From the IMG/VR virus record IMGVR_UViG_3300046786_000293, positions 1 through 64,000 of that record: a stretch of 64,000 nt of DNA. One strand, 5' to 3'. Shown piece by piece: positions 5,403-48,371 of this stretch (position 1 is its first letter; each line of letters begins with the position of its first letter). This stretch comes from a virus. Lineage: Duplodnaviria; Caudoviricetes. The translations under genes and the position numbers were made by a program. Below the pieces are notes generated by a model. That model saw only the letters and a program-made list of their open reading frames with translations, did no database searches and was not told where the DNA came from.

Positions 5403-5427
5403 AAAAAAAATGGACTCCTAAGAGTCC
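5403..5427 (-). terminator. Terminator at the end of the tmRNA coding piece
   Basis: GGACTC-TTAG-GAGTCC followed by A and T8 on the minus strand. Confidence 0.85.
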
Positions 5428-5651
5428 AATTTGGTTGTTTTGGTTACAAGGTAAGTCCTACCCCGGGTTTGGCACTATTAGGCCAATACAGCCTCGCGAC
5501 GAGCAGAAGCTAGCTTTACGCCTTTTCCGCTGAACTTGAAGCTACCATTTGTAGATGCTTTTGCATTTACTAGATTTATGCGATTAACGTTCGTCATCTA
5601 ACGTGCTGTCCACTCTGTTACTCTTTGCCCTGTCGAAACCATGGCAGGCCC
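5405..5651 (-). ncRNA. ssrA: Permuted tmRNA, coding piece (5' acceptor strand, D-loop, tag ORF)
   Basis: Starts GGGCCTGCCATGGTTTCGACAGGG (typical tmRNA 5' end); TAAAT|GCA resume context; tag ORF 5564-5478 ends in TAA. Confidence 0.88.
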
Positions 5652-5660
5652 ATCATAAAA

Positions 5661-5912
5661 TTACTTAATGTATTTGTTGATAACTTTAATTCCTGCGTAA
5701 GTTCCTAGCACAGTAAACATCATTTTGAATACTGTTGTCCAGTCAGTGGCATTACTTAAAGTTAGTTTAATAGGGCCTGCTTCGATGGAGTCTGTTGTTT
5801 TAGGATGATCTAAAAATTGAACATAATATAACAACAAATCCCAAGCATACTGGCTCAACAGATATATCGCAAACGATATAATAAAACCAGTAAACAAACC
5901 TCTACGATACAT
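5661..5912 (-). CDS. 83-aa two-TM protein inside the tmRNA intervening segment
   Basis: AGGAGA RBS directly after the tmRNA CCA; two hydrophobic segments; stop 9 nt before tmRNA G1. Confidence 0.8.
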   Translation of the reverse strand: MYRRGLFTGFIISFAIYLLSQYAWDLLLYYVQFLDHPKTTDSIEAGPIKLTLSNATDWTTVFKMMFTVLGTYAGIKVINKYIK

Positions 5913-5924
5913 TAAATCTCCTTA

Positions 5925-5990
5925 TGGTGGACCTGGCGGGAGTCGAACCCGCGTCCAGAACACTTTTCTCTTTGCTTCATACAGCAATAA
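5925..5990 (-). ncRNA. ssrA: Permuted tmRNA, acceptor piece (T-arm and CCA)
   Basis: ...GTTCTGGACGCGGGTTCGACTCCCGCCAGGTCCACCA; CAGGTCC pairs with GGGCCTG, giving a G3-U70 wobble. Confidence 0.9.
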
Positions 5991-5994
5991 CTAA

Positions 5995-6000
5995 TATTTA
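5995..6000 (-). promoter_or_regulatory. Putative T4-like late promoter TAAATA driving the tmRNA precursor
   Basis: TAAATA lies between a terminator and the acceptor piece; short motif, so position is the main support. Confidence 0.5.
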
Positions 6001-6005
6001 TCAGC

Positions 6006-6028
6006 AAAAAAGGCTCCGAAGAGCCTTT
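6006..6028 (-). terminator. Rho-independent terminator
   Basis: AGGCTC-TTCG-GAGCCT plus T-run on the minus strand. Confidence 0.85.
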
Positions 6029-6046
6029 GTAGCACACTTGCTGAAA

Positions 6047-6397
6047 TTACTCTGCAACAGCGTCAACGATGGCCTGAGCCTCGGACTTCTTAGAGCGAGC
6101 CTTAATAGCCTCGAGGCTGGGCTTTTCTGCCTTAGACGGCTTACTGACTTTGACAGTCTTAACTTCATTATACTTGGCATCTGCGGCATCGATTGCGGCA
6201 GTGTAACGAGCATCTGCATAGAGCTCAGTAGACTTGAGATAAGTAACCACTGCGGGCTTATCCATAGCCTCGGGCAGTTCGCGAAGCTCAATATCAGTAT
6301 GACCATTCTTGGCCAACACTTTAACACGAGTCATGTCATTGGCGAAACGAACTTTAGCTTCACCTTTGAGAACGGAAAGACCAGCAACTTTAAACAT
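6047..6397 (-). CDS. Conserved phage hypothetical protein with basic Ala/Lys-rich C-terminus
   Basis: 116-aa ORF with GGAG RBS, promoter upstream and terminator downstream. Confidence 0.8.
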   Translation of the reverse strand: MFKVAGLSVLKGEAKVRFANDMTRVKVLAKNGHTDIELRELPEAMDKPAVVTYLKSTELYADARYTAAIDAADAKYNEVKTVKVSKPSKAEKPSLEAIKARSKKSEAQAIVDAVAE

Positions 6398-6462
6398 AAA
6401 ATACTCCTAGAAAAAACAAGTTAGTTGAAAAACTGTTAACATCCATTTGCTAACATATTCAA

Positions 6463-6491
6463 ATTATAGTTGATTTTGGATTTGATGTCAA
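6463..6491 (-). promoter_or_regulatory. Sigma70 promoter
   Basis: TTGACA-17-TATAAT. Confidence 0.85.
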
Positions 6492-6544
6492 CCATTATTT
6501 GAATTCAGGTTTACCAAAATTAATTGGCAGATTCTTTTGAAAAT

Positions 6545-6817
6545 TTAGCCTTCGTAAATGGGACCAAACAGACCCAATTGGTCACAGACATCACCGGCCG
6601 CATCATCGAGACGGTCGGCAATGATTTCTTCTACCACAGTCATATCTTCGCCAACCATTGCTTCCTTGATGATTGTGAAAGCATCCTTCAATAGCAACTC
6701 GGCGAACTTGTAGATATCTACGCCATCTTCCAGGCCGTTTTCGGCATCACGGGCCAGACCGTATTTGTCTACAGTCATCCCGGCCTGTTCGGCCAGTTTT
6801 TCAATTCGTTTGTTCAC
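6545..6817 (-). CDS. MNERI-family protein, copy C (divergent C-terminus, GTG start)
   Basis: MNKRIEKLAEQAG...KFAELLLKD; lacks the HFGVE end. Confidence 0.8.
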   Translation of the reverse strand: MNKRIEKLAEQAGMTVDKYGLARDAENGLEDGVDIYKFAELLLKDAFTIIKEAMVGEDMTVVEEIIADRLDDAAGDVCDQLGLFGPIYEG

Positions 6818-6868
6818 GATTCAACTCCGAAATGTTGTTTGATTATTGGCACCGCATCGTCAACCAAA
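6814..6868 (-). pseudogene. Remnant 3' end of an MNERI-family gene fused to a -35 promoter fragment
   Basis: TTGGTTGACG followed by ...ATCAAACAACATTTCGGAGTTGAATCGTGA (IKQHFGVES*), with no start or middle part. Confidence 0.65.
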
Positions 6869-7042
6869 TTAGGCGTTCTTTTTAGGACGACCACGACCAC
6901 GTTTCGGGGCATCTGCAACCACGGCATTCTGATTGAGTTCAGCCAAACGGCCTGAATAAGCACCTTGCCCGGCTTTGTGGATCAATCCAGTTTGGGTAAA
7001 AGTAACAGTGCCGCCTTTAGAAGTAACAAAACCGTTTTTCAT
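6869..7042 (-). CDS. Small protein with C-terminal AT-hook
   Basis: MKNGFVTSKGG...KRGRGRPKKNA (GRP AT-hook core). Confidence 0.75.
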   Translation of the reverse strand: MKNGFVTSKGGTVTFTQTGLIHKAGQGAYSGRLAELNQNAVVADAPKRGRGRPKKNA

Positions 7043-7072
7043 TTCAATGTCCTTCTGTGTTGCAATATCAAT

Positions 7073-7105
7073 ATTATAGCAAAATTGGGAATTTTCGTCA
7101 ACCAA
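7073..7105 (-). promoter_or_regulatory. Repeated cassette early promoter
   Basis: TTGGTTGACG-AAAATTCCCAATTTTGC-TATAAT; 17-nt spacer; extended -10 TG. Confidence 0.9.
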
Positions 7106-7106
7106 T

Positions 7107-7364
7107 TTATTGGTCTTTCATCACGTAAGTGAACAGAATCCATTTGGCTTGATTCAGCATTTGGCGAATGTGTTCACGACTGTTTTCGTTTTGACCACTG
7201 AACGACAGCATTTCTTGTGCGTCGCTCATGAGGCTTGCGGCAACCATTGCAGGGCCTGAGAATTTGAAAGTGATGCTGGACTCGATGCTTTCACGAAGTT
7301 CGGCTTCGGAGCAACCATACATACGACGATCACGTTGTTGACTTTCGTTAAGGACTGCGGTCAT
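7107..7364 (-). CDS. Hypothetical protein (cassette gene)
   Basis: GGAG RBS; own promoter upstream. Confidence 0.8.
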   Translation of the reverse strand: MTAVLNESQQRDRRMYGCSEAELRESIESSITFKFSGPAMVAASLMSDAQEMLSFSGQNENSREHIRQMLNQAKWILFTYVMKDQ

Positions 7365-7394
7365 TTCAAACTCCTTTTGTGTTGCAATATCAAT

Positions 7395-7450
7395 ATTATA
7401 GCAAAATACCCAATTTCGAGCAACCGAAATTTTGTAATACTTTAGTACAC
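7395..7450 (-). promoter_or_regulatory. Repeated cassette promoter (TTGCTC variant) with partial upstream palindrome
   Basis: TTGCTC-17-TATAAT; GTAATAC half-site at 7434. Confidence 0.8.
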
Positions 7451-7642
7451 AAAACCTGCGGCTTCTTCTTTTGCAATCGCCAGATCCTTCAATTCAGCAA
7501 GAGCTTCTTCCTCAGTATCGAACCCGCAAGCATCATAGGAGCCATCGTACATCTTGACATAGTACGGACCGTTTCCGGGACTTGCTTCGGTGTCAATACC
7601 AACTTCGCCAACGCCTTCGATAACACGAGTAACTTGATCCAT
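7442..7642 (-). CDS. Small acidic hypothetical protein (cassette gene)
   Basis: Start MDQVTRV after GGAG. Confidence 0.8.
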   Translation of the reverse strand: MDQVTRVIEGVGEVGIDTEASPGNGPYYVKMYDGSYDACGFDTEEEALAELKDLAIAKEEAAGFVY

Positions 7643-7672
7643 TTTGTGCTCCTTCTTCCTTACTATGTCTAT

Positions 7673-7728
7673 ATTATAGCAAATTCGGGAATTTCGGTCA
7701 ACCAAAAAAAGTAATACTTTGGTATTAA
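7673..7728 (-). promoter_or_regulatory. Repeated cassette promoter with palindrome
   Basis: TTGACC-17-TATAAT; GTAATAC-TTTG-GTATTAA at 7711-7728. Confidence 0.9.
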
Positions 7729-7976
7729 CTATTAACAGTTTCGTAAGGACTGTAGATTTCCACAGCATCGGGGTTACTACGGACCCGGGTTACGTACTCA
7801 TTTTCCAGCAAAACACGGTCCCGGATAGCATTGTACACGCTAACGGGACTGTATAAAACCACAGTATGTTGAACTCCGCCGCCGTATTTGACACGGGACG
7901 ATTCAACGCGGCCCTTGACAGGAATAGATCCCATATAGTTGCCTTCGACGTGCATACCTTCCAAATTCCAGGACAT
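7725..7976 (-). CDS. Hypothetical protein (cassette gene)
   Basis: AGGAG RBS; own promoter. Confidence 0.8.
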   Translation of the reverse strand: MSWNLEGMHVEGNYMGSIPVKGRVESSRVKYGGGVQHTVVLYSPVSVYNAIRDRVLLENEYVTRVRSNPDAVEIYSPYETVNS

Positions 7977-8005
7977 ATGAACTCCTTGTTGCTTACAATA
8001 CCATA

Positions 8006-8038
8006 ATTATAGCAAAATAGGGAATTTCGAGCAACCAA
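8006..8038 (-). promoter_or_regulatory. Repeated cassette promoter (TTGCTC variant)
   Basis: TTGGTTGCTC-17-TATAAT. Confidence 0.85.
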
Positions 8039-8053
8039 AAAAGGTGTTGTTTT

Positions 8054-8413
8054 TTAGCTACAGATTTCGTTTGACAATCGTTGTGCTATGCTTTTTTGCT
8101 TACGCATATTGGCAGGCTGTCCAGTACCCAAATCGTCGTGTGTAAACATTCCGTACAATGTAATGACATTGCCATCCACTTTGTAGACTATGCTTAAATC
8201 TAAATTTAAATGAGCGTGTCGTATACCTGGTACAGCCTGTGTAAAAAATCCTGCACTTAAAAAAGGTTTATCACTTTTACCAAACTGCTGATTAGGATTA
8301 GTACGCTTTACTTCCATGAACTGGCGAAGCTTTTCTTTTAGTTGAGGATAAGGTTTGATCCTACTAAAGTAAGTTTCTTTATAAAGTTCACATCGACGAA
8401 ACGTTGTTTCCAT
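8054..8413 (-). CDS. YafQ/RelE-family mRNA interferase-like protein
   Basis: D-K-P...GIRHAHL..DLSIVYKV....TLY...THDDLG matches the YafQ pattern DHPL...GYRDAHVEPDWILIYKL...GTHAALFG. Confidence 0.72.
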   Translation of the reverse strand: METTFRRCELYKETYFSRIKPYPQLKEKLRQFMEVKRTNPNQQFGKSDKPFLSAGFFTQAVPGIRHAHLNLDLSIVYKVDGNVITLYGMFTHDDLGTGQPANMRKQKSIAQRLSNEICS

Positions 8414-8601
8414 TATTCCTGATCCCACGCATCCATTTCTGCCAGAAGTTCTTCATATGACATGGGTTTGGACCAGTTACAACTTTGTTCTTGTTGAACA
8501 ACACGCACGAGATCCTCTGTCTGGAAATTAGTGTCATTATTTTTGTCAATAGTTTCCGTTAGAGATTTTGTACTAGATACTTTAACTTCATTAATCTTCA
8601 T
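8413..8601 (-). CDS. Small acidic protein, candidate antitoxin
   Basis: 62 aa; TAATG overlap with the toxin start; acidic tail SYEELLAEMDAWDQE. Confidence 0.55.
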   Translation of the reverse strand: MKINEVKVSSTKSLTETIDKNNDTNFQTEDLVRVVQQEQSCNWSKPMSYEELLAEMDAWDQE

Positions 8602-8614
8602 ATAGATATTTACC

Positions 8615-9190
8615 TTACCACGGCAATTCACCACGCTTGCGTTTCAAATGAGTTTCAGTATTACAGTAAGGCCAAAGTGCAGGAATAACACGTTTTTCAA
8701 TACGTCCGATATCTGTACCGGAGAGATGATCCAAGTTCCAAACCATTACAGTTAGTTTATCTACATCAACTCGATGTCGAACTGGAAAGTCTAGTACACC
8801 AGGCGCAACTTTCTTGCGCCCAATACGTTGCCAGTGACTGGGAATTTCCGTAACACCTTCCACAATATATTTGCAAACTCCTGCCTTCCACCCTTCGGGA
8901 AACTGCCATTTGGGCTCTACTTTTTCCACAGGGGTACTGTAAAGTGTGGCAAGATCCACGTCTAGCTTGGGACGATGGGTGTGGTGGCGATTAATAACTG
9001 TATTAGTTGCCGCTTTACCAAAGTAAAAATTTACTTCAGGATAGATGAAGTAGAGACCGCGATGGTCTCCAACTTCTCCGCGATTAATGGCACCTTCAGT
9101 AGTTGCATAGGGCTCAACCCATGCAATACCCAAGTCTTCAAACACTTTACGAATTGTCGCTGTCTGATGTTGTGTTAACATTTTTACCAC
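8615..9190 (-). CDS. GIY-YIG-like nuclease
   Basis: GLYFIY...FYFGKA...NRH motif. Confidence 0.6.
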   Translation of the reverse strand: MVKMLTQHQTATIRKVFEDLGIAWVEPYATTEGAINRGEVGDHRGLYFIYPEVNFYFGKAATNTVINRHHTHRPKLDVDLATLYSTPVEKVEPKWQFPEGWKAGVCKYIVEGVTEIPSHWQRIGRKKVAPGVLDFPVRHRVDVDKLTVMVWNLDHLSGTDIGRIEKRVIPALWPYCNTETHLKRKRGELPW

Positions 9191-9623
9191 GCTTATAATC
9201 TTCGTTAAGAATAGTTTTATCGCTGTTACAGTCTAAGCAAAGGCTTTGAATGTTTTCTTTCGTATCATCGCCGCCATCTGCTTGACGAATCTTATGGTCC
9301 CCGATAATGCGATTACGACATAGTCTAAAAAACTTGTCGGGGTCAGATTCACGCAGACCCGGGTATCTCTTTTCGACCTCAACGCTTACATCTTTGCCAC
9401 AGTCAGCACATATCCATTCTCTATGAAATGTATGTGGCCTATCCATACGTCCGGGACCACCATACTCAATTTGGGCGAGTTGATGGTCACGGCAAAGTCG
9501 ATTCGATCCTGGACCTTGCATATTTGTCAAAGGCTTGTTGCATCCAGGAATGGAGCAAGTATGACCTAGCTCCTTCCTAATTTGAGCAAGACTTTTAGGC
9601 TTGTCAAATTTAAACAGTTTCAT
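9147..9623 (-). CDS. HNH endonuclease with zinc-binding Cys pairs
   Basis: DHKIRQADGGDDTKENIQSLCLDCNSDKT; CSIPGC and CADC. Confidence 0.85.
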   Translation of the reverse strand: MKLFKFDKPKSLAQIRKELGHTCSIPGCNKPLTNMQGPGSNRLCRDHQLAQIEYGGPGRMDRPHTFHREWICADCGKDVSVEVEKRYPGLRESDPDKFFRLCRNRIIGDHKIRQADGGDDTKENIQSLCLDCNSDKTILNEDYKRGKNVNTTSDSDNS

Positions 9624-10792
9624 TAGAACAAGTCTCCTGCGTCAGGAATAAACTCACTGCTAGTATTACTGGCCAATTTAGCAAAGCCTTTAACATCTTG
9701 CTTAATTTGTTCTGCAAGGAATGGGAAACCATGAATGGGCTCTTTGTTGCAACGAGGCGTACCATAAACAATATGTGCCGCATGCCAATTGCTATATGCT
9801 CGGCTAACTTTGGCCCAGAAGCGACTGCTAGGACTAAAGTCTGCACCCCATTTAGTCATTGCAAGACCTGCAACATCAAACACTTGTTGTTGCGTGAGCT
9901 TAAGTTTAGCAAGGCGGCAACGTTCGAAGAAGTAGGCCATCATAACCATTTCCTTCTCCTCAACTGCACGATGCTGAGCACCTACTGCAACCAAGTAGTC
10001 GCAAAGCCAAGCAAGGCTTTCAGTGTCCATCTTGTTAATTTCTTGCATACGACTAATTGCACCAGGCATATGGTCGTCACCAAACTTTTTGCTAGTTAGG
10101 AACAACCCGCGGCTTTCGACAATTTGTTGCTTTTGTTCTGCCAGCATCCACAAAGGATTTTGGCTACCATCAACCCGTACACCATAAATCATTTGCTCGA
10201 TCTTGTCAAACAAGTCCAGCATCTTTTTACCTTCTTCGCTGTTCAAGTCAATAAAGCAACCACGCATTTCGCTCTTTTGATGGCTAGCATAAACATTGAC
10301 AGGAATTTCGAAGTCTGTGGGATCTTCGGCAAACACCTGCGTACAGATAAGCCACAACAACACCAAGGTGTGTTGCCCGTCCCACGCTAGGTACTGCTCA
10401 ACATCGGGATCGGGTTGATATACATGAATGGGGATAACTTTTGTGGAAACAAACATGGTCAGCAAAGTCAACACCCAAGCAATATTGAGTTGACGTTGCA
10501 TAGTGTCGTCGATACAAACTTGACTCATTTTAACAGTCCAAGCCTTGGCCAACTGCTTCTTAAGGTCTTTGGTACCTTTGATGCTAGGATGGCGACGTCG
10601 GAATTCTGCAATAGCCGCACTTAGTGCGATATTAATGGCCTGTTGTTGAATCTTGGGAAGTGCATTGTATGTTTCGTCCCATCGTTGTTTAATGGTACGA
10701 ATTTGGCTTGCAGTTAGTGAAAAGCGGGCATTTTTCTGAGCCGCATAGGTTTGAGTCGTAGTTTGACTAGACCCGTTTTGAAAGTTCATCAT
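9623..10792 (-). CDS. ParB/Srx-like DGQH-motif protein
   Basis: IDDTMQRQL...IHVYQP...YLAWDGQHT. Confidence 0.65.
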   Translation of the reverse strand: MMNFQNGSSQTTTQTYAAQKNARFSLTASQIRTIKQRWDETYNALPKIQQQAINIALSAAIAEFRRRHPSIKGTKDLKKQLAKAWTVKMSQVCIDDTMQRQLNIAWVLTLLTMFVSTKVIPIHVYQPDPDVEQYLAWDGQHTLVLLWLICTQVFAEDPTDFEIPVNVYASHQKSEMRGCFIDLNSEEGKKMLDLFDKIEQMIYGVRVDGSQNPLWMLAEQKQQIVESRGLFLTSKKFGDDHMPGAISRMQEINKMDTESLAWLCDYLVAVGAQHRAVEEKEMVMMAYFFERCRLAKLKLTQQQVFDVAGLAMTKWGADFSPSSRFWAKVSRAYSNWHAAHIVYGTPRCNKEPIHGFPFLAEQIKQDVKGFAKLASNTSSEFIPDAGDLF

Positions 10793-10878
10793 TTTGGTTA
10801 CTCCAGTTTTGATTGAATATACACACAACGGCGTGTGTATGTTATTAATATAACATCAACTGGGTAACCTGTCAACCT

Positions 10879-11154: not shown

Positions 11155-11191
11155 ACCTATATTATACACTAGTTCGAAATAAAAGTCAAAT

Positions 11192-18609: not shown

Positions 18610-19742
18610 TTTAAGAACCTTGTATTAGGATTTATGTTAGTTAGAATGTCGTTTTTAATTTCTTGATCAAAAACACCAGTTCTAAGAATCACTATAGGGT
18701 TGTCAAACTCAGCTAGCATCTTAGGACTACGAACCATTAATTCTGTGCCATACAATCTTTTATTTTGTTTAGCTTCACTATTATCTAATATGCAGACTAA
18801 TTTAGAAGTATCTAATCCAAACACAATTAAGAATTGGCTGAATACATGAGCGCCGAATAGAAACACTCGACCGCTAGCATCTTTAATTTGATCGTTAATT
18901 TTAGCAATTAAATTTCTATGATACTCTAAGTAACTATTAATAAGAGTTCGATTCTCCTCATAGACTTCGGGAGGTTCTGTAATATTAATAGCTCTAGGTG
19001 TTTTTACTGCACTATAAAAAATACTATGATCATTCTTATAGTAATGTCTTTCTATTAGATTAAAACCATAACACTGCAACCACCATTCAATAAATTCTTC
19101 TGTACATAGATATGTATGTTCGAAATTAATTGTGTTGGTAAACTGTTGTTCGAGATGTCGACGTAGTGCTGGTACACTAAAACACATAAATGTACCAACT
19201 TTTAATTTACTAGCTGCTTGAAAGAATTCGTGCGGATTTAAAAAATGCTCTAATACATGACTATGAACTAACATGTTAAGATCATCGGGAATTTCTGTAT
19301 CCTTGGTATAAAACCCATTAATCATTCGAGCACGTAAATCTGGAACTGGTACAGGATTTGGTTCGATGATAGTCCACTCGTTGTCGGGCATTAATTGGTC
19401 GTAATACTTACTCAATTTGCCGTGTGCCCCTCCTATTTCAAATACTTTCTTAGGTTTGTACTTAAAGACAAATTCAGCAAAACTACGATGGTGTTCGTCC
19501 CAACTTACGCCCACGGTACCGGGATTGTGTGCAGACTGATATATAATTTCTAAAGGTAATACAGGATTTAATTGTATCATACCAGTACTACGACTAATAT
19601 AAAAACTCATATCACTGGTTAAGTCTTCGTTTATTGGTTGATCTACACAGCCCATAAACACTGGAAAATCTTTAAGAGTAAAAAGATGCGACAAGTCTTC
19701 TTGTTGACCGACAACATCGGCATTACGTTTGATTACAGTCAT
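18606..19742 (-). CDS. SAM-dependent methyltransferase, NDP-sugar C-methyltransferase-like
   Basis: FEIGGAHG, HSHVLEH, EHTY, C-terminal FLFGA...ILDNSEAKQNKRLYGT. Confidence 0.8.
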   Translation of the reverse strand: MTVIKRNADVVGQQEDLSHLFTLKDFPVFMGCVDQPINEDLTSDMSFYISRSTGMIQLNPVLPLEIIYQSAHNPGTVGVSWDEHHRSFAEFVFKYKPKKVFEIGGAHGKLSKYYDQLMPDNEWTIIEPNPVPVPDLRARMINGFYTKDTEIPDDLNMLVHSHVLEHFLNPHEFFQAASKLKVGTFMCFSVPALRRHLEQQFTNTINFEHTYLCTEEFIEWWLQCYGFNLIERHYYKNDHSIFYSAVKTPRAINITEPPEVYEENRTLINSYLEYHRNLIAKINDQIKDASGRVFLFGAHVFSQFLIVFGLDTSKLVCILDNSEAKQNKRLYGTELMVRSPKMLAEFDNPIVILRTGVFDQEIKNDILTNINPNTRFLK

Positions 19743-21277
19743 AGTACTTGGCTAAAATGTAATTGTGCTAATGCTACAAGAAATTTATCAAAAGGCGCTT
19801 CGTGTAAAGGACTCATGTTCAAGTAAATTAAAGGTACTAGTAATTTTACTTTACGCCAATCTAATCCTTTTTTATTCACAAAGCCTTGAAGTATATCTTC
19901 GTAGACTTGTGCATTTTCTACGCTAGGGATTTCTATTGTAGCATAGTCATTTCGATCAACGTAATCGTACTGATTGTCCTTAATGGATCTATAGTTCAGC
20001 CAAATACCGCCTAACATCTTGGCAAGGTCGTAGTATATGTCTCCGTATACACTACCTGCAAAATCTGTACGCCAATCTATTGCTGTGAACTTATCGGTTT
20101 TGGAGTTGTAGACCATGTTATCAAAATGTAAATCTCCGTGTATCCAACACCAATCTCTTTTCTTACATAACCAATCCCAGTCAATTCTATTAAGGTAGCT
20201 ATCAATAGTATCTACTTCTCTGCGGTTGACCACACAGCACTCACCCCAATCTGCATACTTGATACGAAACTGATTTACTCGTTCTAGGGTTTTATCTCGA
20301 TAAAACTTTTCACATAAAGGATAAGTGTTTTCATCAATCTCAGGATCAACCCAAATGTTTGTGTCACACCAATCTAGCATTTTACGAAATAGTTCAGGTG
20401 TAATTTGATTGTATAAAATATCCCCGTCGGTCCAGTCATGTACTAAGAAATGCCCTACGCCCTTCATATTAGTGGGCATACAATCAGGGTTGGCTCGTGC
20501 TCTACGTATTCTGCTAGTAACATGTTCTTCTTTAGAAAAATACTTTATAACTCTACCGTTGTCGTGATAGAAAATTTCATCGGGTTTTATAAAACTGTTT
20601 TCTTTTGTTTTACTGTTAATTGCTTGCCATTTTTCGTAGGTACCAAAATCTAACCATTCTCGAACAGTATGTGCTTTTAGATTCAAATTTGGAAAGCCTT
20701 GCGGAGTTTCTCGAGCTTTACGCTCTATTAGATTATCTAAGTATTGATCATCTTTACAATACATTAAGCCAATAAACGCATCTACAGCACGATCACTAGG
20801 CACTTTATTATGAATTAGATCTATAGTTTCACCGTCGCGGTCGATCCAGCAATAGTCCTTGGCGAGATAACTATCCACCGGATACACACCAATCCAATTA
20901 TGATCTAAGTTAGATGCATAATCAAAATCAAACAATGTATCGCAACTAATCCATAAAAATCCGTTTAGGATATGAGGAGCGCAATGTTGAATTGTAGTTG
21001 CAGGCCCAGTGTTACCTTCGCTGTAGTCGGGAACATCTACAAATACTACACATTTGTCATCGTGTACTGTGCTAACATAGTCTTTTACTTGTTGACCCAT
21101 GTGTCCACAGGCAATGACAAACTTAGTGGTCTCTTTAGGAAATTTATCAATAATATGACTAATAAGAGGTTTATCACCGTAAGGTACTAAAGATTTATTA
21201 ATCATTCGGCTAAAAGGTCCCATTCGACGACCATAGCCCGCCGCCAATATCAATACTGTTAAATTATTTGTGCTCAC
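19739..21277 (-). CDS. Nucleotidyltransferase fused to an aminoglycoside/choline kinase-like domain
   Basis: N-terminal LAAGYGRRM...NKSL; C-terminal IHGDLHFDN, IDWR, YDLAKM. Confidence 0.85.
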   Translation of the reverse strand: MSTNNLTVLILAAGYGRRMGPFSRMINKSLVPYGDKPLISHIIDKFPKETTKFVIACGHMGQQVKDYVSTVHDDKCVVFVDVPDYSEGNTGPATTIQHCAPHILNGFLWISCDTLFDFDYASNLDHNWIGVYPVDSYLAKDYCWIDRDGETIDLIHNKVPSDRAVDAFIGLMYCKDDQYLDNLIERKARETPQGFPNLNLKAHTVREWLDFGTYEKWQAINSKTKENSFIKPDEIFYHDNGRVIKYFSKEEHVTSRIRRARANPDCMPTNMKGVGHFLVHDWTDGDILYNQITPELFRKMLDWCDTNIWVDPEIDENTYPLCEKFYRDKTLERVNQFRIKYADWGECCVVNRREVDTIDSYLNRIDWDWLCKKRDWCWIHGDLHFDNMVYNSKTDKFTAIDWRTDFAGSVYGDIYYDLAKMLGGIWLNYRSIKDNQYDYVDRNDYATIEIPSVENAQVYEDILQGFVNKKGLDWRKVKLLVPLIYLNMSPLHEAPFDKFLVALAQLHFSQVL

Positions 21278-21731
21278 TATCTATTCTGCCGTGTTGTCTA
21301 TTCTTATCGTCTTGTAATCTAATAACATCGTCTAGCTCTGTAGTACTGGCTTCGATATATACTAGATCGCTAGTGGCAACCATTCTATGTATAGTGCCTG
21401 GTGGTGTGTGAAAGACTACACCCGGTTCTAGTTCCATAACGTTTAAGTTGTTTATAATGTTATCTATCTCAAACATGTTGTACTGCCCGGCGTTGTAACG
21501 CTCAACATTGAATAAGTCTTGACGGTACAGTAATTGTCCTGTGCCTTTTAGAATATAAATTGATTCCGACTTCTTTTCGTGTACTTGTAGGCTAGTACGC
21601 TGTCCTGCTAGTAACGTAAGTTCTTTTAATACAAACGGATACTGATCGCCGCCGGGTTGGATCCATTTTTCCTGTCCCCAAGGTTTGGAGACGGTTTTAA
21701 CTTGTTCGATTGTTTGAATTTCGATGGCCAT
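21264..21731 (-). CDS. Cupin protein (mannose-6-phosphate isomerase type II C-terminal-like)
   Basis: KPWG.E, RTSLQVHEKKSE, PPGTIHRM, EAST.ELDDVIRLQDD. Confidence 0.85.
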   Translation of the reverse strand: MAIEIQTIEQVKTVSKPWGQEKWIQPGGDQYPFVLKELTLLAGQRTSLQVHEKKSESIYILKGTGQLLYRQDLFNVERYNAGQYNMFEIDNIINNLNVMELEPGVVFHTPPGTIHRMVATSDLVYIEASTTELDDVIRLQDDKNRQHGRIDSEHK

Positions 21732-21754
21732 AATATAGTTGAAATACAGAATAT

Positions 21755-22345
21755 TTATCTGCGCTCAACTACGCTGTCTGCTAATCCATAGGCCACTGCT
21801 TCTTCGGCAGACATAAAACAATCGCGTTCCATATCAGCAGTGAGTTCGTCAAAAGTCTTGCCCGCCGAATTATGTTTAACATAAATTCCAGTTAGATTCT
21901 TTTTCATTGCTAGAATTTCTTCAACTTGGATTAACATGTCTGTTGCCTGGCCTCGAGCGCCGCCACTGGGTTGGTGAATCATATGCCTTGCATTAGGCAA
22001 TATATGCCGCTTACCAGCAGCACCTGCGGTAGCCAAAAGACTGCCCATAGAACAGGCTTGCCCGAGAACAATAGTAGATACATCGGGTTTGATAAATTGC
22101 ATTGTATCATAAATCGCCATGCCAGCGGTAACGACACCGCCAGGGCTATTAATGTAAAAGAGAATATCGGCATTTGGGTTTTCGCTTTCTAAAAATAACA
22201 TCTGGGCCACTACAAGACTAGCACTATGTTCATTGACATCTGTGTCTAGTAATACAATCCGATCTTTAAGCAACCGACTGTAAATGTCATAGGCACGTTC
22301 TCCGTTGGAGGTTTTTTCTAGTACTGTTGGTACAAAATTTGGCAT
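21755..22345 (-). CDS. clpP: ATP-dependent Clp protease proteolytic subunit
   Basis: [25 protein letters not shown] (catalytic Ser), MIHQP (His), MERD. Confidence 0.97.
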
Positions 22346-22346
22346 G

Positions 22347-23486
22347 TTAATCCTTTGTTAGTTCGTTAGTTAATTGTTTAAATATTCCAAGTTGTTTTCG
22401 AATCGAATCGTGACTTACTTTTCTGTGTGCTAATGTTTTTGTTAGAAAATCAACACACTTATCTCTTGCTTCAGGACTGTATATCGCCCGATGTATTCCT
22501 TCTATAAACTGTTCAATTTCTATTTTTTGTGTATTAGTTATTCTTGCTGTTATCATTTGTTGTCGTAACAAAGCTGTCAAATCGGCTTTTTCTGTTTCTG
22601 TAAGTATACCCCAGGACAAATGTTTAGGAGACGATAAGTCTTGAAAATGAGTTTTTAATTTAAACTTATTAAGGACTTCCAATGAATTAATTATTTGTTG
22701 TATGTTCAAAGGTTGTACTACATAAACAAATTTCATTTTAGCATTGGGTAATGTGTTTTTTAATGTTAATATATTTTCGCGTGTTGTTTCCCAGCGAGCA
22801 GGATAACGCATAAATTCATATGATTCATCAACCCCGTCTACACTAAATTCTAATTCTAATTTTTTAATTTTGGTTAATTTTTCTAATAGATTAGGAGTTA
22901 GTACCGTTGCATTTGTTACAATCCTACAAGTTAGATTCTTTTCTATAACTTTATCTAGTAGAGTTATATTATTCTTAAAAAGAAAAAATTCTCCGCCAAT
23001 AAAATCAATTTGCTCTAAGTTCACGAGTTCGTCCATTGCTTCTAATGCAAATTCTGTATTATCTACATAAGGGGCAGGTTTATCAATAAACTTTAATAAA
23101 GTTCTTTCTTGTCCAATTGATGAACTAGTCTCTGGACTACACATAAAGCAATTTAAATTGCAGGTATTACCAAACAAAACATCTAATAGTTTAATATCTA
23201 ATTTGTCAGAAAAGTATGGCTTTTTATTAAGGTGCATCCTTATGCTAGTTAACCCAAGTTTTTCTGATCCTATACAGGTTTTGCATCCTGGATTAGGGAC
23301 TGTTCCGTTACACAAGTTATTTCTGTGATCGGTCATTTCTTTACCGTGCAAAAATTCATCTAGTGTACTAATTTTACCAATTGGTCGATATACACACCCG
23401 GGTTTGTATACTATACCGTCACCCAGATCTTCGATTCGCATAGTGGCGAACGGTGCTGTACAAAAAATTTTATTTTCAGTGCTCAT
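22347..23486 (-). CDS. Radical SAM protein with N-terminal twitch/SPASM-like Cys cluster
   Basis: CNLNCFMC (CxxxCxxC); GGE; N-terminal CTAPF...GC...CKTC. Confidence 0.85.
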
Positions 23487-23506
23487 CTACTAATTATAGC
23501 AGACAG

Positions 23507-24004
23507 TTAGCACTTTGTAAAGTCTTGATATTTAAACCAGCGTTTTTGGCCGAAACTTTTTTTCAGTGTAAGACCATAATATTCAAATTGTTCACGCCAC
23601 TCATAAAAAGTGGGCCCATGACCCATACTATGTCTGTAAATGTCTTTACCTTTTTCGTTCATATAATACCAACGATTTACATCCCATTGGTATTGATGTA
23701 CCATTTCATGTGCTAGAGTGTTTAGAAACCACTGTGGGCAAAACCACTTGTCCATTAACTCTATTTTACACCAACTGCCATTTTGATGTTCGTAATCTAA
23801 CCAACTGCATAATCCCCATGCTTTTTTAATGATGCGTTGCTCGATTTCGGGTCGTCGTAAACAGTTGTTAAAAACATGTCTGTTTATGATATTATATGCG
23901 TAGTTAATATCTTGTATTTGGGGTCTAAAACTTTTACGGCGCTGATACGTAATACTAGGAAGAGATTGTTCCATAATGGAACGTATAGGATTTGGTCTGG
24001 CCAT
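23507..24004 (-). CDS. SprT-like zinc metalloprotease
   Basis: HEMVH and later HGPTF. Confidence 0.8.
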   Translation of the reverse strand: MARPNPIRSIMEQSLPSITYQRRKSFRPQIQDINYAYNIINRHVFNNCLRRPEIEQRIIKKAWGLCSWLDYEHQNGSWCKIELMDKWFCPQWFLNTLAHEMVHQYQWDVNRWYYMNEKGKDIYRHSMGHGPTFYEWREQFEYYGLTLKKSFGQKRWFKYQDFTKC

Positions 24005-43441: not shown

Positions 43442-43711
43442 CTTAGTATAAAGACCACTAGGGCCCCATATACTTATACTAAATTGATAAAATAATTTTA
43501 TTGGGCTATAACCTATAGCTAAATACCAGACTTTTTATCTAACTTTTCTGGTCTTGTAGGTTTGGTGGATTCTTTGGTTTCTTTAAGCAGCCGTTCTGTT
43601 ACAGAACTCGTGCGATGATGTGGTAGGTGTTTAGGCGGTTCTTTGACTCGGGGTCTTCGTTTAAACCAACTCATATTGACTCCTTGTAACTATTTACAAA
43701 GAGTCCGAATA

Positions 43712-44020: not shown

Positions 44021-44429
44021 CTACATCCTCCAATGCTTGTTCTATTTGCGCTAAATTAACTCCGTGTTCTAAGTATCCTTCTGTGACCATATTTAGATAG
44101 TATTCACTAGGATATCCAGCACCAGTATGATCTGTCATGAAATATATCATAGCCCGGATTTGGCGACCGTTGTATTGAACAGTAACTTCCTTTTTGCCAT
44201 AAAAATCTGGATAACCTTCTAGTAGATCCAGTGCATATTCGCATTCGGGTGTGATGTCCCATAAGACACAATCCATAGAACTGTCATGATTTATTACAGC
44301 ATCACAAAATTGTTTAAATGCTAATTTGTGACCTAAAAGTTTCACCGCTCCAAGACTACGGGCTTTGGGGCAGCGTCTGCCCATTTGTTTTTTATTTGTG
44401 TTCATGCCATAGGCAAGGTAATAACTCAT
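43998..44429 (-). CDS. Gamma-glutamylcyclotransferase (AIG2-like)
   Basis: YLAYGMN...QM..RCP; LDLLEGYP..Y; PSEYY. Confidence 0.85.
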   Translation of the reverse strand: MSYYLAYGMNTNKKQMGRRCPKARSLGAVKLLGHKLAFKQFCDAVINHDSSMDCVLWDITPECEYALDLLEGYPDFYGKKEVTVQYNGRQIRAMIYFMTDHTGAGYPSEYYLNMVTEGYLEHGVNLAQIEQALEDVDAHCYGT

Positions 44430-44956
44430 AATTCTGTTAAATTGTATCTACTAACTGCGTCTTGAATTGCTTCTGCTTGGCTTACGCAATCAGCCAATGC
44501 ATTGTGTAATAGTGATCCGGGGCGACGTGTATCACCTAATGCTTTTAGTAATGTGCGACTATCACGAATAGAATAATAAGGCCACGGAGCAGGTTTACCC
44601 AACTGTCTATATAGGTTTTCTAGAATAACAATATCAAACACCGGTCCTTGTGCCCAAATACGATTTGCTCCTAGTACAAATTTATTTAGAGACTTAGTGA
44701 AAGTTTCTAAATCAACTCTACCTTCTTCACCCAAAGCTTCTTCTCTAACTTCTTCACTTTGTGTGCCCCACCAAGCAACGGTGCCTTCATCGACTTTACG
44801 GCCTAATGTAATCTGTTCATCTACATTAATCCTAAAATATAGGCCTTGATCCATGTCAGTATCCCTATCAAAAGGATTAAATTTTATGGCACCTATAGTT
44901 AAAATCACACTATCCGGGCTTGTGGCTAGTGTTTCTAAGTCGAGCATTACGTCCAT
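44426..44956 (-). CDS. DEDDh 3'-5' exonuclease (Rv2179c-like)
   Basis: MLDLETL, WAQGPVFD, IRDSRT, HNALADC. Confidence 0.88.
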   Translation of the reverse strand: MDVMLDLETLATSPDSVILTIGAIKFNPFDRDTDMDQGLYFRINVDEQITLGRKVDEGTVAWWGTQSEEVREEALGEEGRVDLETFTKSLNKFVLGANRIWAQGPVFDIVILENLYRQLGKPAPWPYYSIRDSRTLLKALGDTRRPGSLLHNALADCVSQAEAIQDAVSRYNLTEL

Positions 44957-46083
44957 TATTTTCCTAAACAATAACTATCTGTAAAAATTCCAATAGTATC
45001 TTCAAAAAGTGTTCCGTTATGTTTCCACTTTGCGGGTAACAGTTTATCCAATTGATTCATACCATTTTGCCAATTCCTTACATGAGCGCTGTTTTCGTCT
45101 TTAAAGAAAAATTTATCCCAAGGTTGGACTACACTCCTGTCAGCTTTGGCTGGACTAAAGAACATTGGCAATGTTCTATTATATACGATATTGCCTATAA
45201 AGTCATGTTTTGTTCTACCAGTTAGATTATTCAAAATGCTAGGATTTATTCCACGCTCTTTAAGATAGCTTTTGATAACATGCCCTTGTTTTATTAACAT
45301 CAATCCTGTAGACTCTGCCCAGTAAAACGGCTCCACATACAAAGGATTCTGGCTTCCGGTTCCACGAAATGGAACTACCAAATTAATAAATTTATCCAAA
45401 AATTTTAGATAGAACTGTCCATTTCTGTAATCGACTATTGGCTTATCCACACCAATTAAATGGGCAACTGTTTTGCCCATGTCTGTAATTCTTCTAAATT
45501 CGGTATTCACTAAATCAAAATCTGCACGCCAAGCAATACCTGGAGTGAAGCTATTTAAAGGGTTACTGTCGAAGTTAAACCAGTCTGGATTATTTTTAAA
45601 ATAGTTTATTGTGTAATCGCATGTATCAACTACTGTAATTTTTAAATCAGGCAAGTACGTATTTTTAACATATTCTGCTAAAGGATATGATTGAAAAAAG
45701 ACTTCTGCATAGTTATTTTCAGGTCGGTTATTTGCAATAGACTTATCAACGACGCCAATAGGTCCCCTGATAAAAATTTCATCCAATTTAATATTGTTTC
45801 GAATGAATGTTTCAAGGATGTTAGTGCTGTCTGCACCCCCGCTAAAGTGCAAGACTAAGTAGTCATATCGGTTTCTAAGTTCCCAGGCCCGAGCTGAATA
45901 TAACTGATCTAAAGTTTGTGTTGGCTCGAGTTCCCAATTTAATTTTTTATAAATGTCGTCATATAAAACAAACTTCACCGGCTGTTGTTTACGTTCCGAT
46001 TCTAGTATAGCTTTTATTTTACTTAAATACTTCTCATGGCCTACTTCATAGTGACCGTAATAAGTCCCATCGTAAGATAACAT
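44956..46083 (-). CDS. PP-loop (N-type ATP pyrophosphatase) protein
   Basis: HFSGGADS motif. Confidence 0.7.
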   Translation of the reverse strand: MLSYDGTYYGHYEVGHEKYLSKIKAILESERKQQPVKFVLYDDIYKKLNWELEPTQTLDQLYSARAWELRNRYDYLVLHFSGGADSTNILETFIRNNIKLDEIFIRGPIGVVDKSIANNRPENNYAEVFFQSYPLAEYVKNTYLPDLKITVVDTCDYTINYFKNNPDWFNFDSNPLNSFTPGIAWRADFDLVNTEFRRITDMGKTVAHLIGVDKPIVDYRNGQFYLKFLDKFINLVVPFRGTGSQNPLYVEPFYWAESTGLMLIKQGHVIKSYLKERGINPSILNNLTGRTKHDFIGNIVYNRTLPMFFSPAKADRSVVQPWDKFFFKDENSAHVRNWQNGMNQLDKLLPAKWKHNGTLFEDTIGIFTDSYCLGK

Positions 46084-47012
46084 TAATTAGTAACTTTCTC
46101 AAGACCTAAGCGACGCCTCATATCTTCGAATCTATTGTATTGGAAATCTAAGAACTTTTGACTATCGGCAGGTGGTTTAATAATTTCATATTCTAATAGT
46201 TTAAGACTAGAAATCAGATTATTATCTTTAAACGCTGTTTGAGATAAGGAAAACACCCGAGTATCAACTTGATGTCCTTTGACTGCGGATATACCAAACC
46301 AGTAATAAAAATCGAAATCTTCAATGGTTTGTTTTATTATTGGCAACTGCGAAAACTCCTGATGTTTACCTTGACTTGCAATGGCAATAATTTTAATTTT
46401 ATTATCTCTATGAGAATTAGCTAACGTAGACAATGGATCTATTGCACAATCTATACTGCCGCCTATTAGGTTCGCCGTAACATCGCTTGCACCTTTAAAA
46501 GGAATTATTTCAGTCTGACTCAAGCCTAAATGTTTAACTATAAACCTGCCAGCAAACGCTGAGCCAGAATTGCTTACTCCACAATTTAATTTTCTCTTTT
46601 TAGATTGTTCTAAAAATTCATTCCATGATGTAATACCGCTCTGATTACTAACGGCTACTACTAATGGAGTTCTAGCCAACGGCACTACCATATCAAATTG
46701 AGAATAATCGTAGCCATTATTTGAATATAGGACTTTATTAAACAATACAGGACCCGTGGCTGCAATCATGAATGTATTAGAGTCTAACGGCTTATTTAGA
46801 ATATAGGCAACACCTATTTTACCGTCTGCTCCAGGTTTATTTACGATAACCGAGGGAACATTAGAGTTAATTAAGTATTTTTGAAAATTGCGAGCAAACG
46901 TATCTACTGCACCACCTGGAGGATACGGCACAACTAATTCAACTGGTTGAGTTGCATGAGCTATGCTAAAAAATATAAAAAACGCAAAAATAAATTTTGA
47001 TAAATGTTTCAC
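46083..47012 (-). CDS. Bug/TctC tripartite tricarboxylate transporter substrate-binding protein
   Basis: Signal peptide; VVPYPPGGAVD; VNKPGADG; IPFKG...L.GG.ID. Confidence 0.88.
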   Translation of the reverse strand: MKHLSKFIFAFFIFFSIAHATQPVELVVPYPPGGAVDTFARNFQKYLINSNVPSVIVNKPGADGKIGVAYILNKPLDSNTFMIAATGPVLFNKVLYSNNGYDYSQFDMVVPLARTPLVVAVSNQSGITSWNEFLEQSKKRKLNCGVSNSGSAFAGRFIVKHLGLSQTEIIPFKGASDVTANLIGGSIDCAIDPLSTLANSHRDNKIKIIAIASQGKHQEFSQLPIIKQTIEDFDFYYWFGISAVKGHQVDTRVFSLSQTAFKDNNLISSLKLLEYEIIKPPADSQKFLDFQYNRFEDMRRRLGLEKVTN

Positions 47013-47013
47013 T

Positions 47014-47325
47014 TTATTCTTCAGGTTCTAATTTAACTACAAGAGGATATCCGTTGTTACGTGCAAGTTGTGTAACTTCAAATCCCTTTTGTTCAGCCAT
47101 CTCGTGTGGTAAAGTAGCAACTACACCCGATCCATCTGTATGGATCTTAATGGTCATTTCTTCTGCGGCCATGCGATCATAATTGAATATAATGACCAAA
47201 GTTTCGGCAACAAACTCTTGTGTGGTAACTTCATCGTTGATGAAAATTACATTATATCTTAAAGGTTTTGGAATGTCGGTTCTGGGTTTAATTTTTGTAA
47301 CAACGTTTGGATCTGCTGTAGTCAT
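47014..47325 (-). CDS. clpS: ATP-dependent Clp protease adaptor
   Basis: YNVIFINDEVTTQEFV; IHTDGSGVV; A..K; YPL. Confidence 0.92.
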   Translation of the reverse strand: MTTADPNVVTKIKPRTDIPKPLRYNVIFINDEVTTQEFVAETLVIIFNYDRMAAEEMTIKIHTDGSGVVATLPHEMAEQKGFEVTQLARNNGYPLVVKLEPEE

Positions 47326-47371
47326 AATAATTGAAAGTTAGAAGGGGGAAGTTATCCCCCTGTTTATTATA

Positions 47372-47815
47372 TTACTTCTTGTAAGTAATAGCAATCTTCT
47401 TTGGCTTTTCTTCCTCGGGAATTACTAATTCCAAAGCGACTGCGAGAATACCGTTTTGAACGGTTGCTCCACGTACTTCTACGTTGTCTGCTAACGGGAA
47501 AGTGCGAGTAAAGTTTCGAGCACTGATGCCCTTGTGTAGATATTCTACTTTTGGCGCATCTTCTGCTTTGACTTTTTCACCTTTAACAGTTAGCAAGTTG
47601 TCCTTTAATTCTACATCGATTTCGTCTTCAGCAAAGCCAGCCACAGCTACTTCAATAATGAAATGTGTATCGTCCAATTGGGCGATATTGTGTGGGGGAT
47701 AGTTGTCTTTGCTATTAGCAAAAGTACGATTTAGTTCCTCAAACATACGGTCAAAGCCAATGGCATGACGATGTAGTGCAGGTAAATCAAAGGTACGAAG
47801 TGTGAATTGTGTCAT
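47372..47815 (-). CDS. ibpA: Small heat-shock protein (IbpA/Hsp20)
   Basis: IGFDRMF, YPPHNI, AVAGF, YLHKGISARNF, NGIL. Confidence 0.95.
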   Translation of the reverse strand: MTQFTLRTFDLPALHRHAIGFDRMFEELNRTFANSKDNYPPHNIAQLDDTHFIIEVAVAGFAEDEIDVELKDNLLTVKGEKVKAEDAPKVEYLHKGISARNFTRTFPLADNVEVRGATVQNGILAVALELVIPEEEKPKKIAITYKK

Positions 47816-47898
47816 TTTATTTCTCCTTATAAAGCAAGTTATGACATTTAAATGTAGACCCCACCCGGGCATCTACACAAATATTTATTATATAGAAA

Positions 47899-48108
47899 TC
47901 AATCTTGTTTGTCAATTGAGTTGGGCGTAGACATTGGTTCAACGAAATACCATCGTCTTTGGCTTTCAAAAGTTAACGCAAAAAAATTGTAAGTTTCTGC
48001 AGATTCTAAGATAACCCTAAGAGTATATTTTACAATTTTTATTTTGTACGGGAGTTGGTACTTATTACTCCAGTCAAACAGTTGCTTTTTTATTTCGTAA
48101 GCCGCATG
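47899..48108 (-). CDS. Hypothetical protein (start uncertain)
   Basis: ORF downstream of rpsU. Confidence 0.5.
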   Translation of the reverse strand, partial: HAAYEIKKQLFDWSNKYQLPYKIKIVKYTLRVILESAETYNFFALTFESQRRWYFVEPMSTPNSIDKQD

Positions 48109-48158
48109 TTGTGCTCCTAATCCTCCGGCACCTGTGGGCAATACGAACTCGATGTACA

Positions 48159-48371
48159 TTAGTACAACTTCTTGGGCAACGCCTGATCTGCTAGTCGCTT
48201 ACGCCAACGATTTCGTGCCGCAGAGGCTGCTTTTTTACGTGTTGTGGTGGGTTTTTCGTAAAATTCTTTGTCACGAAGATTCTGAAGTAAGCCGCTTTCG
48301 GCAACTTTTTTCTTGAATTTACGTAGAGCACGATCTACGTTGTCATCTTTAACAAATATTTTACAAGCCAT
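48159..48371 (-). CDS. rpsU: Ribosomal protein bS21
   Basis: V...NVDRALRKFKKKV...G.L...R.KEFYEKPT..RK. Confidence 0.92.
   Translation of the reverse strand: MACKIFVKDDNVDRALRKFKKKVAESGLLQNLRDKEFYEKPTTTRKKAASAARNRWRKRLADQALPKKLY

Follow-up and report, generated by a model that had tools for sequence, protein, structure and literature searches.

Translation-linked features of a T4-related jumbo phage probably fall into three modules: a Clp machine, a two-piece tmRNA and a YafQ-like cassette

The window analysed here, 64,000 nucleotides (nt) long, is the first 64 kb of the 338,510-bp IMG/VR virus record IMGVR_UViG_3300046786_000293 (CheckV completeness 97%), and it encodes a transfer-messenger RNA (tmRNA), the ribosomal protein bS21, ClpP, ClpS, Hsp20 and a YafQ-like protein. 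These six features probably belong to three distinct modules, each of a sort typical for T4-related jumbo phages (probability about 0.65). The first would be a phage-owned ClpA–ClpP–ClpS (ClpAPS) machine, with DnaJ, Hsp20 and bS21 as helpers, that may serve in the infected cell to hold, unfold and degrade proteins, either selected or aggregated ones; its bS21 may enter host ribosomes. In the second, a two-piece tmRNA would act with host SmpB to add a 28-residue basic tag ending in AVLA, and the excised spacer of its precursor would have a second role as mRNA for a membrane protein of 83 residues. The third would be a sporadic toxin–antitoxin-like pair, a 62-residue partner and a YafQ-fold RNase, near strong sigma-70-type promoters. 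All six features, which an initial annotation had tentatively joined into one cleave–rescue–tag–degrade circuit, are real: tmRNA, bS21, ClpP, ClpS and Hsp20 pass curated thresholds, and the YafQ-like protein is recognised by its fold.

The division into modules follows the distributions of these genes across related phages. Relatives were gathered via the capsid protein and via ClpA, and whole records were then searched for each family. A tblastn search with the short ClpS protein missed the carriers Atu_ph07, Phosso and SCTP-2, and whole-record profile searches were therefore used instead. The complete or near-complete genomes number nine: this phage, four uncultured relatives, Phosso, Atu_ph07, PA5oct and SCTP-2. 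Below, L-numbers denote related viral contig loci, G-numbers genomes (G000 being this phage) and X-numbers sequencing runs; all coordinates refer to the window unless another scale is given, and the features located there lie on the minus strand.

ClpP, ClpS, ClpA and Hsp20 each occur in 9/9 of these genomes and bS21 in 7/9. ClpX is found in 6/9 and is missing here and in two close relatives. A permuted tmRNA scores over threshold in 5/9, with a sixth genome, G004, carrying one that is split by a 101-codon insert; Atu_ph07, PA5oct and SCTP-2 lack a tmRNA and retain the Clp set. The YafQ-like profile matches this genome only (1/9), and 1 of 14 related genomes. On the side of distribution, such differing patterns are what the initial annotation had itself named as telling against its proposal, and they do not support a single co-inherited circuit. 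The genome does contain a coherent protein-quality-control set, fuller than the window alone reveals, with a conserved Clp, DnaJ and bS21–Hsp20–ClpS part; the tmRNA and the YafQ-like gene are separate from this part and less stable.

Among the genes of the phage are one for a capsid protein of the T4 gp23 type and, adjoining it at 192.4 kb, one for a gp21-type prohead protease as in T4; ARAGORN finds 40 tRNA genes in the record, 38 of which cluster as an island at 111–126 kb. Together, the capsid protein, protease and tRNA island identify it as a T4-related jumbo phage. The DNA runs in which this stretch occurs carry freshwater or estuary metagenome labels. When 20 kb were compared with deposited phages by megablast, the sole match was one of 39 nt to Bacillus phage G, at chance level; at the DNA level the phage thus lacks a close cultured relative. 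By analogy with the tmRNA type of its relatives, the host is likely to be of betaproteobacterial type.

ClpP (21755–22345) is of the bacterial type. It matches its Pfam family at 1.6e-76 (256.7 bits) and the NCBIfam model PRK00277/NF001368 at 296.8 bits (cut-off 249), and it lies below the TIGR00493 equivalog cut-off (284.7 vs 308.6). The alignment to bacterial ClpP spans the whole length with few mismatches, and the motifs of the Ser/His/Asp triad are intact. The presence of the gp21-type prohead protease would leave ClpP free for ClpA. The neighbours of clpP (19739–24004) encode a nucleotidyltransferase–kinase fusion, a cupin and a radical-SAM protein, with no structural genes among them; a weak SprT-like match near ClpP scores 24.8 bits, just under the 25.6 cut-off.

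The ClpS adaptor (47014–47325) matches Pfam at 1.5e-22 (79.6 bits vs 23) and keeps the equivalents of E. coli residues N34, D35, T38 and H66, which hold the α-amino group, while the gatekeeper M40 is replaced by Gln. Its unfoldase partner lies outside the window. The initial annotation had proposed searching the rest of the genome for smpB, clpX and clpA; clpA was found there, and smpB and clpX were not. ClpA, a protein of 764 residues and the only AAA_2 protein of the record, is encoded together with DnaJ at 313.6–316.7 kb, and its discovery completes the ClpA–ClpP–ClpS set. It aligns with E. coli ClpA in one continuous stretch (residues 4–726, 607 bits), with Clp_N, two AAA+ modules and D2-small recognised by Pfam and no long middle domain. 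At the position of the E. coli IGL loop it reads SIGFG, an IGF ClpP-docking loop. A gap of 8 nt separates the end of a class-II DnaJ (J domain and C-terminal domain) from the start of clpA; the dnaJ–clpA pairing also occurs in Atu_ph07 and PA5oct, and in Phosso def lies between the two. Neither ClpX nor ClpB was found in the record by a search in which the ClpX proteins of relatives score about 110 bits, and whole-record searches found no FtsH, peptide deformylase or Aat. The phage must consequently borrow SmpB, and ClpX if needed, from its host.

The genes for bS21, Hsp20 and ClpS share one strand and fall inside 1.4 kb. For these three the earlier description of the genes as dispersed was mistaken; the tmRNA and ClpP lie apart, at 5 kb and 22 kb. 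bS21 (48159–48371) matches Pfam PF01165 at 7.9e-17 (61.2 bits vs 27) and TIGR00030 at 60 bits (cut-off 28.95). Hsp20 (47372–47815), an IbpA-like small heat-shock protein, matches PF00011 at 1.2e-18 (67.5 bits vs 20.8); IbpA is its best NCBIfam match, at 142 against a cut-off of 212, so that it is no equivalog. Across 20 loci scanned, the block has the order orf535–[ClpX or GT2]–bS21–(orf86)–Hsp20–ClpS, where GT2 is a family-2 glycosyltransferase, and Hsp20 and ClpS are adjacent in 19/20. With local gaps it recurs out to PA5oct, Atu_ph07 and SCTP-2, the Hsp20 of SCTP-2 lying elsewhere. The PA5oct annotation lists gp229 as ClpX, gp228 as S21, gp225 as Hsp20 and gp224 as ClpS, with FtsH and ClpP a few kb on, and in four more partial genomes ClpS lies 3–4 kb from bS21.

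The first gene of the block, orf535 (49072–50679), has homologues in 18/20 loci including SCTP-2, and an Atlas search with it matches only viral hypothetical proteins. GT2 (48375–49085) occupies the position of ClpX in relatives, a swap between orf535 and bS21 that is also seen in L141 and L142. bS21 is tightly packed between GT2 and orf86 (47899–48159), a conserved small open reading frame (ORF) with same-position homologues in L131, L141 and L142, no family match, and no similarity to PA5oct gp227 at the equivalent position. Downstream, a gene for a TctC-type periplasmic solute-binding protein (46083–47012) starts at the ClpS stop, and L146 has a homologue after ClpS. No usable match came from Pfam, PHROGs or NCBIfam for orf86, orf535, ORF83, orf375, the YafQ-like ORF or its partner.

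ARAGORN calls a permuted tmRNA at 5387–6021, and the Rfam model RF04321 (tmRNA_permuted) matches 5537–5986 at 104.9 bits (cut-off 47, model positions 1–213). The gene is two-piece and circularly permuted, with the acceptor piece before the coding piece. The acceptor piece (5925–5986), which is the 3′ half of the tRNA-like domain in the RF04321 alignment, carries the CCACCA end at 5930–5925. It is followed by an intervening segment of 273 nt (5652–5924), which holds a Shine–Dalgarno (SD) sequence, AAGGAG, at 5923–5918 and an 83-codon ORF. The coding piece (5400–5651) begins at 5651 with the 5′ strand of the acceptor stem, where GGGCCUG pairs with CAGGUCC-ACCA. The GGGUUCGACUCCC T arm and the G3–U70 alanine identity pair can also be read from the sequence, and the CCA end is encoded.

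The tag frame (5564–5481) comprises 28 codons, opens with the resume codon GCA (alanine) at 5564–5562, and specifies a basic tag with the C-terminus AVLA. Two in-frame stops, TAA TAG (5480–5475), and a terminator hairpin (5428–5411) follow. The length and the AVLA ending are atypical, and a similar AVLA-ending tag occurs in L128. Tags of the clade (L090, L128, L152–L198) range from ten residues ending in ALAA up to long forms of 24–31 residues, and the long forms share internal motifs; in G002 a long tag is indicated by homology, though ARAGORN calls a later resume codon. When a sample of 15 related loci was run against Rfam, 14 came out as permuted tmRNA, 8 of which also pass the threshold of the betaproteobacterial model; matches to RF00023 (one-piece tmRNA) in relatives all fall below threshold and lie mostly on tRNA genes. 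SmpB was not found anywhere in the 338-kb record, and the tmRNA must therefore use host SmpB; this absence has no bearing on membership of the RNA family. Judged by its sequence, the RNA is a two-piece tmRNA of betaproteobacterial type, with predicted processing and alanylation.

The spacer is nearly filled by ORF83 (5661–5912), which encodes a predicted two-helix membrane protein. A homologue that is 48% identical occupies the same spacer position in L104/L165, where the tmRNA parts are almost identical. Other homologues occur in L103 and, in L101 and L102, between ORFs that match nrdA and nrdB in size and sequence. In related contigs the homologue fills the nrdA–nrdB gap with overlapping stop and start codons, and in the window a 199-residue ORF without family match stands between nrdA (61084–63459) and nrdB (59371–60474). 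DNA contigs from the freshwater run X3 join 5641–5661 to 5913–5922 at several slightly different points that coincide with the spacer boundaries, and may represent co-occurring phage variants with a different spacer insert or none. A contig from the RNA library X19 bridges only the junction of acceptor piece and spacer ORF. The RNA libraries are available as assembled contigs, which convey no levels, ends or timing, which leave uncovered stretches uninformative and in which DNA carry-over is possible.

The exact junction of CCA end and SD is present in 48 viral contigs, in 32 of which it leads into a hydrophobic ORF of 20–24 codons that ends at a conserved UUUUAUGA directly before the coding piece. 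For the 24-codon form, 13 distinct sequences were compared: 487 of 1098 codon differences are synonymous in the ORF frame, against 149/1096 and 44/1089 in the shifted frames; on this codon evidence, the short hydrophobic peptide is under purifying selection. The spacer RNAs with such mini-ORFs fold no better than shuffles (z −0.7 to −1.2), so RNA structure alone would not explain the conservation of the spacer. Elsewhere the same slot holds ORFs of 101, 125 or 151 codons, or a complete IscU. In the tmRNA database paper (PMC11915505), the only notable spacer contents named are a tRNA gene and a repeat element.

The YafQ/RelE-fold protein (8054–8413), of 119 residues, is the toxin-like half of a two-gene cassette. 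It has no Pfam or PHROG match, and the NCBIfam model RelE_StbE reaches only E = 0.006 (17 bits vs a cut-off of 27.9). An AlphaFold model built from an alignment of 22 homologues has a mean predicted local distance difference test (pLDDT) score of 92.3. Its best PDB matches in Foldseek are the YafQ chains of DinJ–YafQ (E 1.5e-5, template modelling score 0.82 by target), followed by YoeB, RelE, ParE and HigB; a sequence profile searched against PDB sequences likewise places YafQ-family toxins best (E 0.07–1.4). Residues H68, D72 and H92 show little or no variation among the 22 homologues and align with the CH..D...SH of HP0892/HP0894. The YafQ-like label given at the outset thus holds for the modelled fold and fails for family membership, and its ribosome-dependent mRNA cleavage is a prediction.

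The stop codon of an acidic, antitoxin-like ORF of 62 residues (8413–8601) overlaps the start of the YafQ-like gene. A separate upstream partner ORF is present in 13/16 related loci, and in two more it is fused in frame. The predicted partner–toxin complex scores 0.76 in ipSAE, an interaction score from aligned errors, and the best control 0.00; the mark applied is reached by 58/80 solved complexes and by 2/110 mismatched pairs. Between runs, at least 74% of the contacts are in agreement, the partner pLDDT is at least 56, and the C-terminal residues 44–60 of the partner are placed on the first strand and helices of the toxin.

Between the tmRNA and the cassette, perfect or near-perfect sigma-70 sites stand ahead of short ORFs at 6463–6491, 7073–7101 and 7673–7701, and this stretch looks like an early-gene region; the cassette itself is set among such ORFs. 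Upstream of hsp20, a perfect TTGACA-17-TATAAT site at 47887–47915 is promoter-like as a consensus match only. The overall count of sigma-70-like sites is not above that of shuffles, for which reason only perfect or near-perfect matches are noted here. No promoter-like site of its own was found for bS21. The sequence GATAAATATT has eight copies on the gene strand and none on the other strand in the 338 kb, including copies at 5393, 5993 and 21750 (minus strand), one of them before the tmRNA 5′ end and one after its terminator. It resembles the T4 late promoter TATAAATA and may be a phage promoter element of late type. Taken as weak evidence and a proxy for expression timing, the upstream promoter-like motifs differ between members of the set. 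Run X4 contigs (at least 99% identity) map to the ORF116 region and to the interior of the YafQ-like gene. Separately, a release-factor-domain protein with the GGQ motif only (124–139 residues; G000:C1:111723–112142, minus strand, equivalent to L200:1411–1830) is encoded in the tRNA island, between tRNA genes; having no codon-reading domain, it may be a codon-independent peptidyl-tRNA hydrolase of ArfB/PrfH type.

Several observations weigh against the division into three modules. The nine genomes are kin and not independent samples, ClpS misses all NCBIfam equivalog cut-offs, and ClpA is a divergent member that falls below the NCBIfam ClpA equivalog cut-off (834 vs 993). In PA5oct the annotation of the ClpP homologue reads head-maturation protease and includes a mass-spectrometry flag, so a structural role is possible. 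Because complexes of the DinJ–YafQ type have already been solved, the score of the predicted complex expresses likeness and is not proof of binding, and the in-frame fusions found in some phages, in which the N-terminal part of the partner is fused, are atypical for an antitoxin. A tmRNA lies on the same fragment in 6/16 cassette-bearing contigs, at 3–10.5 kb in four of them; with this contig counted, the cassette is 2–10.5 kb from a tmRNA in five contigs, which may reflect a link; the cassette-bearing contigs are relatives, and this proximity is probably shared synteny.

The circuit of the initial annotation, in which the YafQ-like protein cuts mRNA on the ribosome, tmRNA rescues and tags, phage Clp degrades and ribosomes are freed again for late synthesis with the help of bS21 and Hsp20, is unlikely. 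All its parts are present and ClpA completes the protease. In E. coli, ClpX is the main protease partner for ssrA tags, and ClpA recognises them too. The 28-residue basic AVLA tag is unusual, with its counterpart in L128 and with long tags common among relatives, and the tags of three near-complete genomes without ClpX end in VLA or LVA, those of two with ClpX in LAA. However, this pattern is broken by L177, which ends in ALAA and in which no ClpX was found, and by L174, which has ClpX and ends in LAV. The cassette stands 2 kb from the tmRNA here and 3–10.5 kb away in four other contigs, but in kin contigs such spacing probably reflects shared synteny and not independent events. Near-complete relatives retain tmRNA and Clp genes without a YafQ-like gene, and Atu_ph07, PA5oct and SCTP-2 possess the Clp set without a tmRNA. 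The record has no SmpB and ClpX has been lost, and the conserved partner with its predicted binding suggests that the YafQ-like protein is normally inactive. Like all the activities assigned here, the hand-over of tagged proteins to phage ClpAP is a prediction, and one that ClpS would oppose by its E. coli biochemistry: E. coli ClpS inhibits ClpAP on ssrA substrates (Dougan et al. 2002, cited in PMC6102473).

A form of this idea with a private axis of tagging and degradation also appears improbable. Here, the phage ClpA–ClpP, in place of host ClpXP, would recognise a long basic tag that is specific to the lineage and ends in AVLA, a reading drawn from the loss of ClpX in this lineage; YafQ-like protein freed from its partner would truncate messages, and the spacer RNA would be a messenger. 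Production of the membrane protein would then be tied to tmRNA maturation.

It is similarly doubtful that the genes are unrelated host-derived passengers (morons) whose joint presence merely reflects the coding capacity of a jumbo genome. The tmRNA (5 kb), ClpP (22 kb), the block (47 kb) and ClpA (314 kb) are far apart, the distributions of the members differ, and ClpX has been swapped for a glycosyltransferase. Yet ClpA, ClpP, ClpS and Hsp20 are kept in 9/9 genomes from phages of alpha- to gammaproteobacterial hosts, the bS21–Hsp20–ClpS order and the dnaJ–clpA pairing persist at 40% protein identity, and motifs specific to a partner are retained, namely the IGF loop of ClpA and the pocket residues of ClpS. 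Finally, that ClpP is a virion-assembly (prohead) protease with no ClpA or ClpS partner, and hence that there is no phage ClpAPS machine, is very improbable: its best PHROG matches are ‘head maturation protease’ families and the PA5oct homologue is so annotated, but the protein is above the bacterial ClpP cut-off and below the ClpP-related head-maturation model (99 vs 120), aligns throughout with bacterial ClpP, lies among radical-SAM, cupin and nucleotidyltransferase genes in a genome with a separate gp21-type protease beside the capsid gene, and co-occurs in 9/9 with ClpS and a ClpA that keeps its docking loop.

A whole ClpA–ClpP–ClpS set, together with DnaJ, Hsp20 and bS21, is a stable core of a widespread jumbo lineage infecting alpha-, beta- and gammaproteobacteria, within which tmRNA, ClpX and the YafQ-like cassette are gained and lost. 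It thereby becomes possible to ask, in a concrete system, how regulated proteolysis of its own benefits a virus; among cultured relatives, PA5oct and Atu_ph07 possess the conserved block. Tags that are long and variable, and a gene in a discarded part of a precursor, could inform thinking on stable-RNA genes as messengers and on degron diversification, points that this case alone does not establish.

The proposed machine can be compared with the ClpAPS N-degron pathway of E. coli. The ClpA N domain, two AAA+ modules and IGF/IGL loop are alike, as are the Ser–His–Asp triad of ClpP and the pocket residues of ClpS. In contrast with E. coli, the genes are scattered with no clpS–clpA operon, the ClpS gatekeeper is changed from Met to Gln, and there is no Aat transferase. 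In 388 phage genomes, Chen et al. (2022; PMC9723584) found Hsp20 (n = 127) and two families of Clp protease (n = 50 and n = 47) to rank with the commonest genes at a distance of up to ten genes from bS21, and the block described here is an instance of Hsp20 and Clp near bS21. The clades of that study are Bacteroidetes phages with bS21 beside structural genes, whereas here it stands between a glycosyltransferase and Hsp20–ClpS. According to work cited in PMC9723584, incorporation of a phage bS21 into the host 30S subunit has been shown experimentally only for that of HTVC008M.

The tmRNA resembles betaproteobacterial two-piece tmRNAs (RF01850/RF04321) in its order of acceptor piece, spacer and coding piece, in G3–U70, in CCA and in the GCA resume codon. 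A phage example of two-piece tmRNA is provided by the OM43 phage Melnitz (PMC9004378), and phage tmRNAs such as this likewise come without a phage SmpB. It differs from these in that its 273-nt spacer is filled by an SD sequence and an 83-codon gene, and in that its tag has 28 residues, is basic and ends in AVLA instead of LAA. The cassette resembles DinJ–YafQ and RelE pairs in fold, in the His/Asp/His positions and in its small, overlapping upstream partner, whose C-terminal helix is predicted to pack on the toxin; the toxin-like protein exceeds YafQ in length by about 25 residues and has a conserved helix at its C-terminus, and the partner has no recognisable DNA-binding domain. It differs from type II pairs of the RelE superfamily in having no Pfam or NCBIfam membership and in being carried by a jumbo phage of lytic type.

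The closest counterparts are the Clp and chaperone gene sets of Rak2-like, T4-related jumbo phages, namely Atu_ph07 of Agrobacterium, AP-J-162 and Phosso of Sinorhizobium, PA5oct of Pseudomonas and SCTP-2 of Salicola. Individual members of the set had been taken as known in large phages, and this is borne out by the published Clp gene sets of Atu_ph07 (PMC6102473), by the tmRNA, S21 and Hsp20 of AP-J-162 (PMC11242549) and by the tmRNA, S21 and release factors of huge phages (PMC7162821). The PA5oct omics paper (Lood et al. 2020; PMC7318152) does not discuss the Clp, S21 and Hsp20 genes of that phage. ClpA is about 39–44% identical between this phage and these relatives, and ClpP, ClpS, Hsp20, bS21 and a DnaJ before ClpA are held in common; a permuted tmRNA is shared with Phosso, and a tmRNA is reported for AP-J-162. 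In contrast with them, this phage has no ClpX, ClpB or FtsH, carries GT2 in the ClpX slot, and adds the YafQ-like cassette and a gene inside the tmRNA spacer. The gene set and the bS21–Hsp20–Clp neighbourhood are thus already described for jumbo phages, to which this phage adds another member, and its most unusual item is the two-piece tmRNA with its long basic tag and spacer gene.

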